A stretch of DNA of 64,000 bases from Thermoanaerobaculia bacterium (GCA_963715895.1 OY970284.1:5069777-5133776), one strand, 5' to 3'; shown: positions 20,399-29,519, numbered from the stretch's first letter. A program made the numbers and translations. The notes: a model not told the origin generated them from the sequence alone.

Positions 20399-23300
20399 AT
20401 GTCAACCTTCTCGCGCAACATCCTGCTCGCGTTAGCTGTCGTCATCCCTTGCTTCGGAAACGCCTACGCCTTGCCGGCACCGCGCCGGCCGGTGCCGAAG
20501 GCAAAGACGGTGGCGAAGGGGACGGACGTTCCTAACGGCACGCGTCATGCGTCGGTCCCGATCGTCCAGGCGCCCTATACCGGCGCGCCGCCGCTCGCGG
20601 TCGCGAACGCCGTTCGGACGCCGCCCCTGAGCAAAATGAAGGTCATTCCGCCGCCGTTTCGCGGTGAAGACGAGGACCGCTTCGAGCCGGTCCATCCGGT
20701 GCGTCCCACCGATACTCCGGCCGAGGATGGCAAACGGCAGATGATCATGGGGCAGACTCGCTCCGCTCCTGTCTCCACGGGCCTCAGCTTCGAGGGCGTC
20801 GGCACCGGCCTTCCGGGGTTCTTCCCCTGCTGCGTTCCGCCAGACACCAACGGACACGTCGGCGCCACGCAGTACGTACAGTGGAACAACCTCAGCTTCG
20901 CGGTCTGGGACAAGAGCGGGAACAAACTCTTCGGACCGGCGGCCGGCAACACCCTCTTTCAGCCGCTCGGCGGGGTTTGCGCCTCGCACAACGACGGCGA
21001 CCCGGTCGTCAACTACGACGTTCTGGCCGGGCGCTGGGTCGTCTCGCAACTGGCCGTCTTTGCCAATCCCGGCTTCTCGCACCAATGCGTGGCCGTGTCG
21101 CTCACCAGCGACGCCATCGGCGCCTGGTACCTCTACGACTTCATCACCGATCCGGTGAACTTCGTCGATTATCCGAAAATGGCTGTCTGGCCCGACGGCT
21201 ACTACATGTCCGGGCATATCTACGACGGCAGCGGCTCGTCCTACCTTGCCGGACGAATCTATGCCTTCGAGCGCGACAAAATGCTCAATGGCCAGCCGGC
21301 CCGGATGCTGAGCAAGGATCTCAAGCAATACGGGGGGTTTCCCCAGTACGGTTTTCTGGCGGCGGATCTCGACAGCCCCCTGCCGCCCCCTCCCGGCGAA
21401 GCGGAGTTCGTCATCGGGCCCGATCCCGCATCGACCACCCTCCTCGATTCGACCAGAGTAGCGGTCACGTGGGGGGTAACGCCGGCGATCGCGTTCACCG
21501 AGACGCAAATCAGCGCCAGTTGGGGCATACCACCGTGTGTGAGCGGCGCCGGCAGCCGCGCCTGCGTTCCGCAGCCACCGCCGGCCTCGGGATCCGACTA
21601 CCTCGACAACCTCGATCAGATCATGATGTACCGGCTCGGCTACCGCAACTTCGGAGGATCGCCGGTACAGGAGTCGCTGGTCGGCAACATCACCGTGGCC
21701 GGCAGCACGAGTACTCCCCCGCACGGCGCCATCCGCTGGTTCGAGTTCCAGAACGCCGGCGACTCCACGGCCACGCCAACGGTTTACCAGGCCGCCACGT
21801 TCGATCCCGACAGCGACTACCGCTGGATGGGCTCGATCGCCATGGACAAAGACCACAACATCGCGCTGGGCTACAGCAAGTCGAGCACGACCGTCCTGCC
21901 GTCGATCTTCGTCAACGGACGCCTCGGCACCGATCCCATCAACACGCTCGGCACCGAGACACAGATGATGGCCGGAGCCGGCGTGCAGTTTTCGTATAAC
22001 CGCTGGGGCGACTACAGCTCCATGACCCTCGACCCCATCGACCAGTGCACTTTCTGGTACACCAGTGAGTATCTGCAGGCGAACGGTGCCTTCAACTGGG
22101 CCACGCGCATCGGCGCGTTCAAGTTCCCATCGTGCACCCCCGTATCGTGGGGCAACCTCAGTGGGAACATCACCTCGTGCGCGACCGGCGCGCCGATCGG
22201 CGGCGTCATCGTTTCGCTCGGCAACGGATATTCCGTGGCCAGCGACGCCTCGGGGCACTACTCGGTGGCCGTCCCGGCCGGCACCTACACCGCCACCGCC
22301 GCCGGTACAGACCTCAATTGTTCGTCCAGCTCGCCCGCCACGGTCAGCGTGATCGTGCCGGTCGACGGCACGGTGACGCAGGATTTCTGCATGGCCGGGA
22401 GCTCGAAGCTCGAGTCCGGCGCTGTTTCCATCAGCGACACCGCCGCCGGCAACGGCAACGGCATCGTCAACCGGAACGAGTGCTTCGACCTCAGCGTCAA
22501 CGTCGCCAACAACGGCTGCGCCAGTGAGTCCGCCATCAGCGCCACGCTGACGACGTCGACACCTGACGTGACCGTCACGCAGGGCAGCTCGTTCTATCCC
22601 GACCTGGCCGTTGGCGCCAACGGCGCTAATTCCATTCCATTCAGGATCAACACGGCATCGACGTTCGTCTGTGGTACGGCCATCAACTTCACGCTGAATC
22701 TCACGTACGCCAGCGGCAGCAAGTCGGTCGGCTTCACGGTGCCGACCTGCGGCAACGGCGGGAGCGCCGTCATTCCGATCAGCTCCCTCAGCCCGACCGA
22801 CCCGAGCCAGCCCGACCGGCTGTACCGCATTGGCACTCCAAGCAGTTGCGGCAACAAAGCCTGTCCCGGTCCACTCGGTGGCGGCACCTACTACTACAAG
22901 ACGTTCAAGTTCACCAATTCCAGCGCCGCGACCGCCTGCATCACCGTCACCATGAACGGAGCATGCGGGTCGAGTGGCGGCCAGGTCGAGACCTCGGCCT
23001 ATCTCGGAAGTACCTATACGCCTCCGGCGACCGGGGGCGGCAATATCTGCAACAACTACCTGGGCGATGCCGGCAGCAGCGTCGGCTCGATTCTCCCCAG
23101 TGTCACCTTTTCCTTCAACGTCCCCGCCCTTTCGGACTTCGTCATCGTCGCCAACACCGTGGACGTGGGTAGTTGCACGCAGTTCTCCGGCACCGTCAGC
23201 GGCTTGATCGACAACACTGCCGGTCCCGGCCCATGCCCAACCTGCACGCCTCCGGCGACGCCGGCGATCACCCCGGGCGGCCCGACGACGTTCTGCGCCG

Positions 23301-26300
23301 GCGGCAGCGTGACGCTCACCTCCAGCGCCGCAAGCGGCAACCAGTGGTACCGCAACGGCGCCCCGATCGCCGGCGCAACCGGCGCCTCGCAAGCCGCCAC
23401 CGCCGGCGGCAGCTACACCGTCACCACCACCACGGGCGGCTGCATCAGCGCGCCGGCGCCTGCGATCACCGTGACGGTCAATCCGATTCCCGCCACGCCA
23501 ACGCCGTCGAACGGCGGTCCGTTCTGCGAAGGGTCGACGATCTCCCTCTCGACTCCGGCCGCGACCGGCGCGACCTACGCCTGGACGGGGCCGAACGGCT
23601 TCACCTCCGCGCTTCAGAGCCCGACCCACGCGAACGCGGCGGCCGCCGATGCCGGCACCTACTCCGTCACCGTCACGGTCAACGGTTGCACCTCGGCCGC
23701 CGGCACGACCAGCGTCGTCGTCAATCCTCTTCCGGCGACGCCGGCGCCGTCGAACGGCGGCCCGTTCTGCACCGGTCAGACGATCTCGCTCTCGACGCCG
23801 GCGCTGAGCGGCGCGACCTACCATTGGACGGGCCCGAACGGCTTCTCCTCGTCCCTGCAGAATCCGACGCACGCGAATGCCACGGCGGCGGATGCGGGCA
23901 CGTACTTCGTTACCGTCACGGTGAATGGCTGCCCCTCGGCCGGCGGAACGACAGCGGTCGTCGTGAGCCCGATTCCGACGGCGCCGGCAGCGTCGAACGG
24001 CGGGCCATACTGCGCCGGCTCGACCATCGCGCTCTCGACACCGTCCATCAGCGGCGCCACCTACGCCTGGACCGGGCCGAACGGCTTCACCTCCGCGCAA
24101 CAGAACCCGACGCGCGCGAACGCGGCCACCGCCGACGCCGGCACGTATTCGGTCACCATCACCGTCAACGGCTGCACCTCGGCCGCGGGGACGACGACCG
24201 TCGTCGTCAACACCGCCGCACCGGCAACGCCCACCGCCGGCAACAGCGGTCCGTTCTGCGAAGGGAGCGCGATCGCACTTTCCACCCCGGCTGTCGCGAA
24301 CGCGACCTACGCCTGGACGGGGCCAAACGGCTTTACGTCTTCGCTGCAGAATCCGACGCGGGCCAACGCCACCGCTGCCGATGCGGGGACCTACTCCGTC
24401 ACCATCGCCACCGGCGGCTGCAGCTCGGCGGCCGGAACGACGGCCGTCGTGGTCACACCGAAACCGGCCACGCCGGCGGCGGGCAATGGCGGTCCGTACT
24501 GCGAAGGAAACACGATCGCGCTCTCGACGCCTGCGGTGAGCGGCGCGACCTATGCGTGGACGGGTCCGAACGGCTTTGCATCGCCATTACAAAACCCGAC
24601 GCGCCCGAACGCCGCCGCCGCTGACTTCGGCACCTACGCGGTGACGGTCACAGTCAACGGCTGCACCTCCGCGGCCGGTACGACGAACGTCATCGACTCC
24701 AATGCCGCGGCGGTGGCGAGCAACGGCGGTCCGTACTGCGCCGGCGACACGATCGCCCTCTCCACGCCGGCGGTGCCCGGCGCCACCTACGCATGGACCG
24801 GCCCGAACGGCTTCACCTCCGCGGCCCAAAGCCCAACCAGTCCGAACGCCACCGCCGCCGATGCCGGCACGTACTCCGTGATCGTCACGACGACCGGCTG
24901 CGTCTCGCTGGCAGGCAGCACCAGCGTCGTCGTAAACACCTCCGCGGCGACACCGGCGGCGTCGAACGACGGTCCGTATTGCGAAGGCTCCACGATCTCG
25001 CTCTCCACCCCCTCGGTGCCGGGCGTCGTGTCGTATGCCTGGACCGGCCCGAACGGCTTCACGTCATCGCTCCAGAATCCGACCATCGCCAACGCCACGA
25101 TCGCCGTCGCCGGCACCTACTCGGTGACCATCTTCAATGGCTGCACCTCAGCGGCAGGCGACACCACGGTCGTCGTCAACCCCGCGCCGGCAGCGCCAAC
25201 GGCCTCCAACAGCGGCCCGTTCTGCGCCGGCGGGACGATCTCTCTCTCGACACCGCTCGTGACCGGGGCGACCTACGCCTGGAGCGGCCCGAACGGCTTC
25301 ACCTCGCTGCTGCAGAGCCCCACTCGCGCCAACGCCACCGCCGCCGACGCCGGCACCTATTCGGTGACCGTCACCGTCAACGGCTGTACGTCTCCGGCCG
25401 GCACGACGGACGTCGCCGTCAACACGCTCGCGGCGCCCTCCCCGGCGAACGGCGGGCCGTACTGCGCCGGCGCGACCATCGCGCTGGCAGCTCCCATGGT
25501 GACGGGCGCGACGTACTCGTGGAGCGGCCCGAACGGATTCACTTCGTCCCTGGTCAACCCGACGCGACTGAGCGCGGCGGCCGCCGACGCCGGCACCTAC
25601 TCCGTGACGGTCACCGTCAGCGGCTGCACATCGCCCGCCGGGACGACGGACGTCATCGTCAACCCCATCCCGTCGACACCTGCCGCGTCGAACGGCGGTC
25701 CGTACTGCGCCGGCAGCACGATCTCCCTCTCGACACCGCTCGTCAGCGGCGCGGCCTACGCCTGGACCGGCCCGAACGGCTTCACCTCCTCGCTGCAAAA
25801 CCCGACGCGCGCGAACGCGGCCACCGCCGACGCCGGCACGTACTCCGTGACGGTCACGGTCAACGGCTGCACATCCCCCGCGGGGACGACAAACGTCGTC
25901 GTCCATGCCATGCCGTCAACTCCGGCGGCGACGAACGGCGGCCCGTACTGCCCCGGCGCCACGATCCTGCTCTCGACACCGTCCGTCAGCGGCGCGACCT
26001 ACGCCTGGACCGGCCCGAACGGCTTCACCGCCTCGCAGCAGAACCCGACGCGCGTGAACGCCACGGCCGCCGACGCCGGCACCTACTCGGTCACCGTCAC
26101 GGTCAACGGCTGCACCTCGCCGGCGGGCACGACGAACGTCGCCGTCAACACACCCGCGGCACCGACGATCATCGCGAACGGCCCGACGACGTTCTGCTCC
26201 GGCGGCAGCGTCACGCTGACCTCGAGCAGCGCCACCGGCAACCAGTGGCGAATGAACGGCTCGCTGATCATCGGCGCGACGAACACCACCTACACGGCCA

Positions 26301-27568
26301 CCGCATCCGGCAGCTATACGGCCGTCGTGATCGCGAACGGCTGCGCCAGTGCGGCCTCGACGGCAATCAACGTGACCGTCAACCCGAAGCCCAACGCCAC
26401 GATCGGAACCGCCTCGTTCACTTCCGCCGGCGCGACGAATTCCGCAAGCGTCATCAATGCCGGCGTGGGTGCGACGTATGCCTGGACCATCACCAACGGC
26501 ACGATCATCTCCGGCACAGGTACAACCACGATCGGCTACACCGCCGGCAGCTCCGGGGCTACCATCCTCAACGTCACGGTCGCGGCCGCCGGCTGCAGCG
26601 ACACGAAATCAGCGAGCATCGCCATCCTTCCCGGCGTCCCCACCGTGACTCCTTCCATCGGCCGCACCGCGGGCGGGACGAACGTCACCATCACCGGCAG
26701 CGGATTTCAAAGCGGCTGCTCCGTCACTTTCGGGAGCTTCGGCTTCAACGCCACGAACGTCGTCCGCGTCAACTCCACCACAATCACCGCCACCACCCCG
26801 GCGCACACTGCCGGCCCGATTACCGTCGTCGTCACCAACCCCGACAACTTCGCCGCGGCGCGCCCGAACGGTTTCACCTACGTCGTGCAACAGTTCGATG
26901 CTAATGGCGACGGCATCGTCACTTCGTCCGACATCTTCTACCTGGTCAACTATCTCTTCCTCAACGGTCCGGCGCCGAGGGGCTCGGCCGGCATGATGTC
27001 GGGCGACGCCAACAACGACGGCAAGGTCAACTCGTCCGACATCTTCTATACCGTGAACTACCTTTTTCTCCACGGTCCGGCCCCTGCGTCCGTCCCCGCT
27101 CCCGTTTCGGCGCAATCAGCCGGCGGGCCGCTTTCCGGCTCGGTTACCCTCGGCAAACCGGTTCGCAAAGGCCACCACTACACAATTCCGGTGATCGTGG
27201 CCGCCTCACCCGGTTCCGCGGCGCCGCAGTCGCTCTCGCTGCGCGTGACGTTCAGCGGCGACCCGGTGAGCAACGCCGTCATCCACCACGCCGACGGAAT
27301 CCAGACGCTGTTCGAGCTCAGCCCTCCCGCGGCGAATACCCTCTCGTACCTGGTCACGTTTGCCGCCCCAGCGCAGGGCATCGTCGCGGAAATCGAGCTC
27401 GACGCCAGCAGCGGCGCGAACGTCAGCATCGACGTCGACCCGACCCTGACGCTCCTCGCCAACCGCGCCGGAACGCGGAGCGCCACCCTCGAAGCCGGCA
27501 CCCTGCAAGTGAGCGGCACGAAGATCGAAGCACCGGAACGGCGCGCGCCCGGAAAAGAGATCAATTAG
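20399..27568 (+). CDS. Large secreted/surface protein: N-terminal globular domain, carboxypeptidase-regulatory-like domain, 11 tandem Ig-like repeats, IPT/TIG, dockerin-like pair, C-terminal beta domain
   Basis: Signal peptide; 11 x ~80-aa repeats (GP[YF]C.G.TI.L...YAW[TS]GPNGF.S..QNP......DAGTY.V....GC); IPT GGTNVTITGSGF; duplicated D.N.DG.V..SDIFY.VNYLF. Confidence 0.9.
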   Translation: MSTFSRNILLALAVVIPCFGNAYALPAPRRPVPKAKTVAKGTDVPNGTRHASVPIVQAPYTGAPPLAVANAVRTPPLSKMKVIPPPFRGEDEDRFEPVHPVRPTDTPAEDGKRQMIMGQTRSAPVSTGLSFEGVGTGLPGFFPCCVPPDTNGHVGATQYVQWNNLSFAVWDKSGNKLFGPAAGNTLFQPLGGVCASHNDGDPVVNYDVLAGRWVVSQLAVFANPGFSHQCVAVSLTSDAIGAWYLYDFITDPVNFVDYPKMAVWPDGYYMSGHIYDGSGSSYLAGRIYAFERDKMLNGQPARMLSKDLKQYGGFPQYGFLAADLDSPLPPPPGEAEFVIGPDPASTTLLDSTRVAVTWGVTPAIAFTETQISASWGIPPCVSGAGSRACVPQPPPASGSDYLDNLDQIMMYRLGYRNFGGSPVQESLVGNITVAGSTSTPPHGAIRWFEFQNAGDSTATPTVYQAATFDPDSDYRWMGSIAMDKDHNIALGYSKSSTTVLPSIFVNGRLGTDPINTLGTETQMMAGAGVQFSYNRWGDYSSMTLDPIDQCTFWYTSEYLQANGAFNWATRIGAFKFPSCTPVSWGNLSGNITSCATGAPIGGVIVSLGNGYSVASDASGHYSVAVPAGTYTATAAGTDLNCSSSSPATVSVIVPVDGTVTQDFCMAGSSKLESGAVSISDTAAGNGNGIVNRNECFDLSVNVANNGCASESAISATLTTSTPDVTVTQGSSFYPDLAVGANGANSIPFRINTASTFVCGTAINFTLNLTYASGSKSVGFTVPTCGNGGSAVIPISSLSPTDPSQPDRLYRIGTPSSCGNKACPGPLGGGTYYYKTFKFTNSSAATACITVTMNGACGSSGGQVETSAYLGSTYTPPATGGGNICNNYLGDAGSSVGSILPSVTFSFNVPALSDFVIVANTVDVGSCTQFSGTVSGLIDNTAGPGPCPTCTPPATPAITPGGPTTFCAGGSVTLTSSAASGNQWYRNGAPIAGATGASQAATAGGSYTVTTTTGGCISAPAPAITVTVNPIPATPTPSNGGPFCEGSTISLSTPAATGATYAWTGPNGFTSALQSPTHANAAAADAGTYSVTVTVNGCTSAAGTTSVVVNPLPATPAPSNGGPFCTGQTISLSTPALSGATYHWTGPNGFSSSLQNPTHANATAADAGTYFVTVTVNGCPSAGGTTAVVVSPIPTAPAASNGGPYCAGSTIALSTPSISGATYAWTGPNGFTSAQQNPTRANAATADAGTYSVTITVNGCTSAAGTTTVVVNTAAPATPTAGNSGPFCEGSAIALSTPAVANATYAWTGPNGFTSSLQNPTRANATAADAGTYSVTIATGGCSSAAGTTAVVVTPKPATPAAGNGGPYCEGNTIALSTPAVSGATYAWTGPNGFASPLQNPTRPNAAAADFGTYAVTVTVNGCTSAAGTTNVIDSNAAAVASNGGPYCAGDTIALSTPAVPGATYAWTGPNGFTSAAQSPTSPNATAADAGTYSVIVTTTGCVSLAGSTSVVVNTSAATPAASNDGPYCEGSTISLSTPSVPGVVSYAWTGPNGFTSSLQNPTIANATIAVAGTYSVTIFNGCTSAAGDTTVVVNPAPAAPTASNSGPFCAGGTISLSTPLVTGATYAWSGPNGFTSLLQSPTRANATAADAGTYSVTVTVNGCTSPAGTTDVAVNTLAAPSPANGGPYCAGATIALAAPMVTGATYSWSGPNGFTSSLVNPTRLSAAAADAGTYSVTVTVSGCTSPAGTTDVIVNPIPSTPAASNGGPYCAGSTISLSTPLVSGAAYAWTGPNGFTSSLQNPTRANAATADAGTYSVTVTVNGCTSPAGTTNVVVHAMPSTPAATNGGPYCPGATILLSTPSVSGATYAWTGPNGFTASQQNPTRVNATAADAGTYSVTVTVNGCTSPAGTTNVAVNTPAAPTIIANGPTTFCSGGSVTLTSSSATGNQWRMNGSLIIGATNTTYTATASGSYTAVVIANGCASAASTAINVTVNPKPNATIGTASFTSAGATNSASVINAGVGATYAWTITNGTIISGTGTTTIGYTAGSSGATILNVTVAAAGCSDTKSASIAILPGVPTVTPSIGRTAGGTNVTITGSGFQSGCSVTFGSFGFNATNVVRVNSTTITATTPAHTAGPITVVVTNPDNFAAARPNGFTYVVQQFDANGDGIVTSSDIFYLVNYLFLNGPAPRGSAGMMSGDANNDGKVNSSDIFYTVNYLFLHGPAPASVPAPVSAQSAGGPLSGSVTLGKPVRKGHHYTIPVIVAASPGSAAPQSLSLRVTFSGDPVSNAVIHHADGIQTLFELSPPAANTLSYLVTFAAPAQGIVAEIELDASSGANVSIDVDPTLTLLANRAGTRSATLEAGTLQVSGTKIEAPERRAPGKEIN

Positions 27569-27594: not shown

Positions 27595-27683
27595 TCGTCG
27601 GCACCTTGTTACCCGTCGAGAGCCTTCTCCCCCCGCGGTTTTTTGCGGGGGGAGAAGGTGCGACAGGCGGATGAGGGGGGCGT
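27595..27683. repeat. REP-like palindromic element, copy 1
   Basis: CCTTCTCCCCCC...GGGGGGAGAAGG hairpin followed by GGCGGATGAGGGG. Its inverted partner is at 27788-27818 plus 29412-29468, split by the IS110. Confidence 0.8.
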
Positions 27684-27925
27684 ACACGTGAATGCGCGAC
27701 TTACCGACGCTGGTCCGGAAACCGCTTTGAAGGCGCCGCAAGCATGGTTGCCATTCGGCTCGCGCGTTCGAATGACGTCCGTGTGAAACGCCCCCTCATC
27801 CGCCTGTCGGCACCTTCTGCTCTGAAGTTTGGGTGGGTGGGGAGACAGAAAGGTACTGGGCGGCTCGAAAGGCCGTTCGAGGGGAGGTTGTTTTGTCGGC
27901 CGTGGGCGCGGCCCGCGAGAGCAGG

Positions 27926-29152
27926 TTAGGTGTTCAGTGGCTTACAGTTCACCTCATAACCGAGCTTGGTGAGCTCACGCATGAGATGGCGCGAGCGTTG
28001 TTGTCGGGTGACCTCGGGATCAGCATTCCGGGGTGGGGTGTACGGGACCTTCTTGGAGATCATGTGGTAGAGCGCGACAGCGATTTCGCGAGCGACAGCC
28101 ACGAAGGCACGTCGAGGTCCGCGGCGCGCAGCAAGGCGGTGGAAGCGGTGCGCGAGGTGCGAACCGATGGTCTGTGAGGCACCCACTGCGGCCTGAATGA
28201 GGATGGTTTTCACGTAGGGGTTCCCTTCGCGAGCCTTTGCCTTTTTGCGAACGCCGGCACTTTCGCGATTGCCGGGACAGGTTCCCGACCAGGCTGCGAA
28301 CTGACGATCAGTCTTCCAGGCCGTCATGTCCGTTCCGATCTCAGCGATCAGATCGATTGCCAATATCCGGTTCACGCCGGGAATGGTGTCGAGCAAGGCG
28401 ATCACGTCTTCGAAGGGGCCGACTTTCTTCTGAATGAGCTTTTCTAATTGCTCGATCTGAGCTTCCAGATCGGCGATGACCTTCAATTCCACTCGCAGCA
28501 GGCTCGCGTCTTCCTTGCTGAATGATCCTCGAAAGGCACGCATCAGCGCCCCTCGCTTCCCACGCAGCCTCCCTTTGGCCAACTCCGACAACTCCCGAGG
28601 ATCCGTCACTCCGCCAGCCAATCCGGCCAGCATCAGACGTCCAGAGACCCCGAAAATATCTGAGGCAACCGAAGACAGCTTGATGGTCGCGCACTGCAGA
28701 AGCTTCTCCACGCGCAGCAGACATGCCGTGCGCGTCTGCATCAGCTTGCGCCGGTAACGCGAGGCCTGTCTCAGATCACGGATCGGCCGCGGTGGAACGA
28801 AGTTCGGTTGAATCAGGCCATGTCGCAGAAGCTTGGCGATCCACTGCGCATCGGAAACATCCGTCTTTCGTCCGGGTACATTCGCCATGTGGCGGGGGTT
28901 CCCGAGGATGATTTCCAGTACTCCCTCCAGCACTTGGTATACCGGCATCCAATACACGCCGGTGCTTTCCATCGCCACATGCGTGCACTGCCTTTGGATC
29001 AACCAATCACGCATGCGCTCGATCTCATCGCGAAACGTTCCGAATGTGCACGTGACCACCGTCGGCGGGCTGCTCCGCCCATCGATACAACACGCCACGA
29101 TTTTCTTTTTGTGCACGTCCAGACCTGCTCCCACTACAACGACTACTTCCAT
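27926..29152 (-). CDS. IS110-family recombinase/transposase
   Basis: DEDD RuvC motifs GLDVHK, AMESTG, KTDVSDA; TIPGV; catalytic Ser in GNRESAG; AGGAGG RBS. Confidence 0.95.
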   Translation of the reverse strand: MEVVVVVGAGLDVHKKKIVACCIDGRSSPPTVVTCTFGTFRDEIERMRDWLIQRQCTHVAMESTGVYWMPVYQVLEGVLEIILGNPRHMANVPGRKTDVSDAQWIAKLLRHGLIQPNFVPPRPIRDLRQASRYRRKLMQTRTACLLRVEKLLQCATIKLSSVASDIFGVSGRLMLAGLAGGVTDPRELSELAKGRLRGKRGALMRAFRGSFSKEDASLLRVELKVIADLEAQIEQLEKLIQKKVGPFEDVIALLDTIPGVNRILAIDLIAEIGTDMTAWKTDRQFAAWSGTCPGNRESAGVRKKAKAREGNPYVKTILIQAAVGASQTIGSHLAHRFHRLAARRGPRRAFVAVAREIAVALYHMISKKVPYTPPRNADPEVTRQQRSRHLMRELTKLGYEVNCKPLNT

Positions 29153-29409
29153 GACACCCTCCTTTCATGAGGTGTCCAAGAACGCGTACGCCGCCATTCG
29201 AACTCAGAATCTGCTCTGCGTGCTTGTTCGGACTTCCGAACGTCATCAAACGGTGGTACCTATGCCGGCGCGGGATCAGCCTCCCCCACGGGGCTCTGTA
29301 GCCTCAGTTAAGGTTTCGACCTCTTCGCGTCTTAGACACCGCAAAAGGTCGGTCCGGCTGGTCCCGCCTGCAACTTCGTCCACGGCGGTCGGCCGAAGGC
29401 CGGCGGGCC
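29153..29409 (-). ncRNA. Putative bridge RNA (seekRNA) in the IS110 non-coding end
   Basis: Contains CTCCCCCAC (29281-89; target flank CTCCCCCGC), AAGGT (29310-14; complement of target ACCTT) and CTGCTCTG (29211-18; donor junction). Confidence 0.75.
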
Positions 29410-29519
29410 CTCCCCCGCAAGGAACCGCGTGGGAGAAGGCCCTCGACGAGTAACAGAGTTGCCGGCGATTCAAGTGAGTGTGTGAGAAATGCGGCTAGCC
29501 CGGGGCTAGCGCTCCACGA

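Follow-up and report, generated by a model that had tools for sequence, protein, structure and literature searches.

The stretch of DNA considered here (the window) comprises 64,000 nucleotides from a Thermoanaerobaculia bacterium (GCA_963715895.1 OY970284.1:5069777-5133776) and contains an IS110-family element inserted in a hairpin of the repetitive extragenic palindromic (REP) type. Very probably, this element is autonomous and moves as a complex between its recombinase and a bridge-type RNA issued from its 5' non-coding end. It is of a known kind, and its RNA departs from the characterized types in the polarity of the recombination site and in donor recognition. The boundaries of the element, its copy number, its specificity for site and orientation, the fold of the upstream region, and the covariation between guides and DNA were demonstrated by the sequence analysis.

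In the proposed mechanism, the RNA would form two internal loops. The target loop would read both strands of one REP hairpin arm around a 2-bp core, its 5' guide ACCUU pairing with AAGGT on one side and its 3' guide UGGGGG-AG with the other strand on the other side, and ACCUU together with UGGGGGAG would set the choice of site. The 'handshake' position that follows the 3' target guide would be matched to the first bases of the element. The donor-loop 3' strand, CAGAGC-AG, would read the tip of the right end and the core. The left end would not be read beside the core; it may be recognized through the handshake bases and a conserved hairpin at the terminus, and by a donor-loop 5' strand that pairs, beside the left subterminal repeat, with +19..+30 of the strand bearing CT, a combination proposed with low confidence. 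By analogy with the experiments on IS621, ISEc21, and IS1111, the guides would act as RNA bound to the recombinase, and the element would pass through a circle.

The element and its insertion sites

Nine copies of the element, with a rounded identity of 100%, are present in the single-contig genome of 6.64 Mb. All of them share one REP position and one orientation, with a 2-bp core and no target duplication. A first-pass annotation of the window had proposed that the element splits an inverted copy of the REP at 27595-27683, with CT at both junctions, and the sequence reads as claimed: on the + strand the junctions are GGCACCTT-CT/GCTCTG... and ...GCGGGCC/CT-CCCCCGC (slashes mark the boundaries). 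On the transposase strand they read ...gcggggg/AG/GGCCCGCC... and ...CTTCAGAGC/AG/aaggtgcc..., and they are identical in the nine copies, which bears out the expectation that other genomic copies would occupy the same REP position. Empty GGGGGAGAAGGT sites occur 84 times in the genome, for 1.5 expected, and the 40 of them that were displayed with their context all lie in REP-like hairpins. The complementary REP arm carries the same 11-mer without the T at +5, and GGGGGAGAAGG sites total 184. None of the nine copies is inserted in that other arm, which fits a guide whose 5'-most base pairs with the T in question. Judging from these features, the element is an active-looking IS110-family insertion sequence.

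Two of the copies (L005 and L004, at G000:C1:3613830-3615422 and 3617096-3618688) lie 1.7 kb apart in opposite orientations. The right flank of one of them differs from the usual REP tail, and the sequence of this flank recurs beside an empty site around position 2,132,577; a larger repeat may be involved.

The encoded protein is, by its sequence, an IS110-family DEDD recombinase. It matches the Pfam families PF01548 (DEDD_Tnp_IS110; 8.6e-27) and PF02371 (Transposase_20; 2.2e-17), and it scores 249.5 bits, for a cut-off of 140, with NF033542 of NCBIfam, an equivalog named 'IS110 family RNA-guided transposase'. Four residues, D12, E62, D98, and D101, do not vary among 17 aligned relatives, and S298 hardly does. 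The sole solved relative found in the PDB is IS621, a distant one (E 1.3e-9 over two partial stretches; 408 vs. 328 amino acids).

A predicted two-loop RNA upstream of the recombinase gene

Relatives of the element were gathered from species genomes and metagenomes; among the metagenome stretches 577 of 598 were confirmed, and the best 80 were kept. When aligned, the upstream ends of the relatives display a conserved pattern. As RNAalifold yielded only 12 pairs with a plain MAFFT alignment, the structure was set by hand before a covariance model, R1, was built from 17 sequences with three helices, the outer stem of the donor loop lying outside the model. R1 found 91 matching places in 100 sources, nearly always immediately upstream of the gene, and a single match in the window (29182-29325, - strand; 79.9 bits, E 5.9e-25). 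In the model alignment, 94.9% of the cells are paired and 14 of the 17 pairs show compensatory changes, values that none of 500 shuffles reached, and slid controls gave only 23-51% pairing. U.G pairs are found at two closing pairs (UG in 79/87 and 88/90). The two loops appear as one and the same module, composed of a 5' strand, a U, an inner stem UGK.GC...GC.MCG, and a 3' strand N6 ending in AG. When the guides are constrained to be open, the fold shows this two-loop architecture closed by a basal helix. A predicted structured RNA with two internal loops is thus present in the long non-coding end, as in bridge RNAs and seekRNAs. No Rfam family matched the RNA core, the only match up to E=1 being a chance one, to a snoRNA (small nucleolar RNA), within the coding sequence.

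On two contigs, R1 matched twice, about 1.5 kb apart (L062:541-680 and 2039-2178; L113:534-681 and 2070-2126), which suggests tandem or adjacent elements.

Proposed target recognition

The 257-nt end, read on the transposase strand, was reported to hold three guides in order, and ACCUU (29310-29314), GUGGGGGAG (29281-29289), and CAGAGCAG (29211-29218) are indeed found there. ACCTT is present twice in this end, at positions 61 and 96, and the second occurrence is the guide. All three guides are real, with one refinement: the family alignment indicates that the first G of the middle one closes the inner stem, the guide proper being UGGGGG-AG followed by the 2-nt handshake. The matches are far from what chance would give. 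When the 257-nt end was simulated 200,000 times as a first-order Markov chain, an 8-mer identical to the right-end tip and core occurred with a frequency of 0.005 and a 9-mer with C/U with one of 0.009, and all three guides in order, the middle one taken as a 7-mer, with one of 5e-6.

Guide-target covariation, which had been suggested as a check, and guide-donor covariation are seen across dozens of relatives when cognate pairings are compared with non-cognate pairings among the same elements. Of 86 elements, 61 have a 3' target guide of at least 7 nt where it is expected upstream, compared with 1.3% of 7,288 non-cognate pairs; the matches of the 3' target and 3' donor guides then set the boundaries for the remaining tests. 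The 5' target strand is complementary to the core and right flank in runs of at least 5 nt in 25/62 elements (4.0% for non-cognate pairs) and of at least 6 nt in 16/62 (0.7%), and a diagonal is visible in the position matrix. The target loop is thus complementary to both target strands around the core, with a 3' guide of 7 nt plus a wobble in the window element. No signal linked the target-loop 5' strand to the tip of the left end.

The two nucleotides that follow the 3' target guide are identical to left-end position +1 in 95% and to +2 in 87% of 61 elements, vs. 34 and 37% in non-cognate pairs, and they show no relation to the right flank (n=61). Both their position and their partner fit those of the handshake guide in the target-binding loop of IS621.

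Natural retargeting is seen among the relatives. L010, at 94% amino acid identity, resides in another hairpin, the left half of which matches UGGGGG-AG exactly. In L049 (69%), both the target loop and the site have changed, and the donor loop and right-end tip are the same. The core itself also varies: among 86 elements, the two loops name AG/AG in 70 cases and AA/AA in 12, the four others being mixed. In the 12 elements of the AA subgroup (L104, L013, L019, L073, L114, L083, and others), both 3' guides end in AA and the junctions agree; here the core dinucleotide has changed naturally, in the two loops together. The left junctions of L027, L031, and L032 read ...T-AA-C... although the guide ends in AG, and the cognate 7-mer was therefore not found; the boundary or the core may differ at the left end in this sub-branch.

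Donor loop and element ends

The right half of the end-to-end junction is matched in the expected manner: a 3' donor guide of at least 7 nt, directly after the gene, is found in 57 of 73 elements vs. 2.4% of 6,131 non-cognate pairs. The two nucleotides after this guide are at most weakly related to the right flank (42 and 32%, vs. 31 and 25% in non-cognate pairs; n=57), and no signal was detected between the donor-loop 5' strand and the right flank.

For the left half, the situation is different. A left-donor guide was not evident to the first-pass annotation, and this holds for the window element and 61 relatives. The mean longest run of complementarity between the donor-loop 5' strand and the core plus left-end tip was 2.77 in cognate and 2.90 in non-cognate pairings (n=61). 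What the strand does resemble is a segment farther inside the element. It is a same-sense copy of sequence in left-end +9..+50, with runs of at least 7 nt in 16/61 elements vs. 3.6%, and an identity diagonal spans seven positions opposite left-end ~+19..+30, with an excess of 17-43% at variable ones (n=57). The copied segment sits between the terminal hairpin and the left inverted repeat. A hairpin stem of at least 5 bp is present at the left end in 46/61 elements, compared with 30% of shuffles, with 51 distinct arm sequences. The subterminal inverted repeats, of 5-8 bp, covary: the left/right pairs are AAAAT/ATTTT in most elements, AAGTT/AACTT in the window element and L010, AAGAT/ATCTT in L049, L106, and L107, and GTAAAT/ATTTAC in L130. 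The handshake dinucleotide, the covarying repeats, the left-end hairpin, and the same-sense copy of the left end in the donor loop all go beyond the earlier annotation.

Since both donor-loop strands are same-sense, one with the right-end tip and core and the other with a segment 19-30 nt inside the left end, both would pair with the single CT-bearing strand, which we infer as the simplest reading. Moreover, the two sites have the same 5'-to-3' order in the integrated element as in the RNA, so that the RNA could splint both ends of one strand. It is conceivable, albeit tentative, that a large clade shares such a distinct donor mode. Its donor loops would not read the junction halves on opposite strands, as that of IS621 does; each of their strands would repeat element DNA in the same sense, the RNA would splint the two ends of one strand, and the hairpin and handshake would replace the left-donor guide. 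By one pattern scan, at least 577 relatives from metagenomes belong to this clade, as does ISArsp3.

A canonical left-donor guide might, on the other hand, exist and have been missed because it is discontiguous or in a shifted register, the same-sense copy of +19..+30 having another cause such as a shared protein-binding motif. One IS621 donor guide pairs discontiguously according to the published description, and a conserved CACC opens the loop strand and raises the background identity (non-cognate runs of at least 6 nt: 12%). We nevertheless consider this explanation unlikely: no diagonal emerges when the loop strand is plotted, position by position, against the core and left-end +1..+14 (n=61; the largest excess is 0.20, and the excesses are scattered), whereas identity with the internal segment does form a diagonal, at the variable positions. 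Furthermore, no complementary partner of the strand was enriched (n=49) in any of eight regions within or flanking the element, namely the left flank, left-end +1..+18, +15..+40, and +40 to the start of the model, the target loop, the leader after the donor guide, the last 60 bp, and the right flank.

Hairpins are only modestly enriched in the left flanks of the relatives (stems of at least 7 bp in 12/55 vs. 9% of shuffles). Several relatives, including L014, L015, L022, and L024, are inserted at the 3' end of the 3' arm of a hairpin or 2-3 nt off it.

Does the structure act as a guide RNA?

The proposal that the element represents a natural RNA-guided recombinase directed to the REP family of its host is supported by the protein family, the nine concordant copies, the guide covariation, and the fold, with action as RNA being the conditional part. 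A number of points weigh against it. The non-cognate controls address chance and not phylogenetic relatedness, and in two of the guide tests it was the guide matches that fixed the boundaries. As the alignment was fitted to the model, the pair counts are biased in favour of the latter. The guides, which were predicted to sit in internal loops, do so in the covariation-supported fold, but the single-sequence minimum-energy fold places parts of them in stems, with a z-score of only -1.96. In the window element, the 5' target guide is just 5 nt long and skips the core, the handshake position matches one of two bases, and, as in the 61 relatives, there is no canonical left-donor guide. A search for sigma-70-like promoters, with a model that may not be that of the host, gave none within the element and none over the computed circle junction. 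Finally, the sole hint of expression, weak at most, comes from two soil metatranscriptome runs of different studies, in which contigs cover 29071-29289 and 29101-29290 and so take in the donor loop together with the beginning of the gene; they could represent DNA carry-over. The parts of the element left uncovered in these RNA runs are uninformative. Both contigs end at the edge of the variable target guide, and the stop at 29290 may be due to related elements that differ there. In one DNA run, contigs cover the whole element. Neither the circle junction nor the empty-site join nor other joints were seen in the assembled contigs of the sequencing runs.

Covariation is blind to the distinction between RNA and DNA, and the matches might act as DNA, with subterminal segments of the left end pairing with target and end DNA in the manner of the hairpin-adjacent guide sequences of IS200/IS605, without any RNA; the conserved left-end hairpin and the negative promoter search would be in line with such a mechanism. 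However, the enzyme is a DEDD protein of the IS110 family and not an HUH transposase, the guides are embedded in a fold whose compensatory changes and U.G pairs are characteristic of RNA, and the bench-tested members of the family require RNA according to the literature, all of which makes this possibility very improbable. Even less credit can be given to the idea of a mere 5' leader that regulates the expression of the recombinase, with guide-like matches arising as a side effect of site-specific insertion. The contigs of the RNA libraries do run from the donor loop into the coding sequence, and the structure is therefore probably part of the mRNA leader too. The function of a leader, however, would not require it to follow, across elements with differing targets, both strands of the flanks, the tip of the right end, the core dinucleotide in either loop, and the initial two bases of the element.

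The features of the element and its site are compiled in Table 1. A very long open frame of 2,389 amino acids (20399-27568, + strand) stops 27 bp short of the intact REP.

Table 1. Features of the IS110-family element and its insertion site, in window coordinates.
Feature	Position	Strand	Remarks
IS110-family element	27819..29411	minus (transposase strand)	1,593 bp including one core copy; from 9 genomic copies, flanks vs. empty REP sites
Core dinucleotide, right-end junction	27817..27818	CT on +, AG on transposase strand	only 2 bp common to both junctions, 9/9 copies
Core dinucleotide, left-end junction	29410..29411		from the junctions of 9 copies
Right non-coding end	27819..27925	minus	107 bp, downstream of gene
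Recombinase gene	27926..29152	minus	408 amino acids; DEDD RuvC-like domain and Transposase_20
Upstream non-coding end	29153-29409	minus	257 nt
Two-loop RNA core (target loop and donor loop)	29182..29325	minus	R1 match; conserved
Target-loop outer stem, 5' strand GGUCG	29317..29321	minus	pairs with 29274-29278; helix 1, 98% paired, 4/4 pairs compensatory; constrained fold
Target-loop 5' guide ACCUU	29310..29314	minus	complementary to core-adjacent flank AAGGT; left-target-guide type with CT on top; core unmatched (AA)
Target-loop inner stem-loop	29289..29306	minus	helix 2, 95.6% paired
Target-loop 3' guide UGGGGG-AG	29281..29288	minus	identical to left flank and core on transposase strand; right-target-guide type; 7/7 plus rU.dG at eighth position
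Handshake position GC	29279..29280	minus	1/2 bases match the first bases of the element, GG
Donor-loop outer stem, 5' strand	29262..29271	minus	pairs with 29188-29197; constrained fold of window sequence only; similar stem by eye in L011
Donor-loop 5' strand ACCACCGU	29250..29257	minus	same-sense copy (7/8) of left-end +21..+28; not complementary to left-end tip
Donor-loop inner stem-loop	29219..29248	minus	helix 3, 92.9% paired, 6/8 pairs compensatory
Donor-loop 3' guide CAGAGC-AG	29211..29218	minus	identical to right-end tip and core; right-donor-guide type
GC hairpin, left-end +8..+20	29390..29402	minus	conserved
Left-end segment ACCGCCGT (+21..+28)	29382..29389	minus	copied by donor-loop 5' strand
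Left subterminal inverted repeat GAAGTT	29372..29377	minus	covaries with right repeat
Right subterminal inverted repeat AACTTC	27824..27829	minus	covaries with left repeat
Target half-site for 3' target guide	29412..29418		GCGGGGG on transposase strand
Target half-site for 5' target guide	27809..27816		AAGGTGCC on transposase strand
Intact neighbouring REP hairpin with empty target site	27595..27683		one of 84 empty sites

Comparison with known systems

Taken singly, the element is ordinary, in that REP-targeting IS110 elements with bridge RNAs are established and the name of the NCBI family already includes 'RNA-guided transposase'. It nevertheless offers a clean natural example, with its nine copies, 84 empty sites, and naturally retargeted relatives. 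It also extends the handshake rule of IS621 to a distant clade, whose sites have the opposite polarity with respect to the gene and which lacks the canonical left-donor guide. If the donor were indeed read via one strand and a hairpin, design rules derived from the IS621 donor would not transfer to this large group of recombinases, and a distinct mode of donor recognition would have consequences for the reprogramming of such systems.

In loci oriented by their gene, Durrant et al. described a CT core, with the 5' strands of the loops pairing with the bottom strand over 8-9 nt and the 3' strands with the top strand over 4-7 nt. With IS621 of E. coli (PDB 8WT6), the window element shares a recombinase that combines the DEDD domain with a serine, an RNA upstream of the gene with the target loop before the donor loop, loops in which an inner stem-loop separates a 5' from a 3' strand, a terminal AG on the 3' strands, whose partner is the strand that bears CT, a 2-nt handshake guide that follows the right target guide, a 2-bp core without duplication, and a REP target. 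In contrast with IS621, its CT-bearing strand is antisense to the gene, the core on the sense strand being AG, and the top strand is the partner of the 5' loop strands, the bottom strand that of the 3' ones, which is the reverse arrangement. Its 5' strands are of about 5-7 nt, and the long core-containing guides are the 3' ones, with 7-8 nt including the core; the long second guides that contain the core and the first target guide that lacks it had already been recognized as differences from IS621. In addition, the window element has no left-donor guide, no junction promoter was found for it, and it possesses 5-8-bp subterminal repeats and a left-end hairpin. When the DNA is turned so as to have CT on top, the target loop, the handshake, and the right donor guide become canonical, which indicates that it is the recombination site that is inverted relative to the gene and RNA.

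With AG as the core on the transposase strand, the order of the guides relative to the gene is reversed, as in IS1111. According to Siddiquee et al., the top-strand match lies 5' of the bottom-strand match in IS1111, and the order is opposite in ISEc21, whose RNA is upstream. The elements of the IS1111 group that use seekRNAs (ISEc11, ISPa11, ISKpn4) resemble the window element in that order and in their subterminal repeats, and some of them target REPs. In that group, however, the long non-coding region follows the gene, and transposases have 330-350 residues, whereas in the window element the long non-coding region is upstream (257 vs. 107 nt downstream) and the protein has 408 residues, within the 395-455 given by the same authors for an IS110 subgroup. 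ISEc21, which is of the IS110 type with an upstream seekRNA, is similar to the window element in its upstream non-coding region and its matches to both target strands, but its top-strand match is 3' of the bottom-strand match, unlike that of the window element, which is 5'. By its IS1111-like order, its upstream RNA, and its 408-residue protein, the window element combines both sets of traits.

ISPpu10 of P. putida, likewise an IS110 element, has a comparable target by its published description: it enters, or lands next to, a GC-rich stem-loop that belongs to a repeated intergenic sequence and is a second determinant of specificity. This parallel offers only a suggestion that the REP hairpin, or the left-end hairpin of the element, might serve as a structural signal.

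Within the clade itself, searches of article text on ISArsp3, ISAar29, and donor loops together with subterminal repeats gave no account of the RNA or the donor geometry. ISAar29 (Extended Data Fig. 10c of Durrant 2024) is possibly a member, and that figure may already display the donor geometry. Among the known systems closest to the window element are ISArsp3, from a plasmid of Arthrobacter sp. FB24, and IS110-family elements of Streptomyces, at ~43-44% amino acid identity, with R1 matches upstream of the gene of 42.9 and 46.6 bits. Their targets and hosts differ from those of the window element, yet ISArsp3 and the Streptomyces element share with it the AG core, the handshake bases, the left-end hairpin, the inverted repeats, and the same-sense copy.

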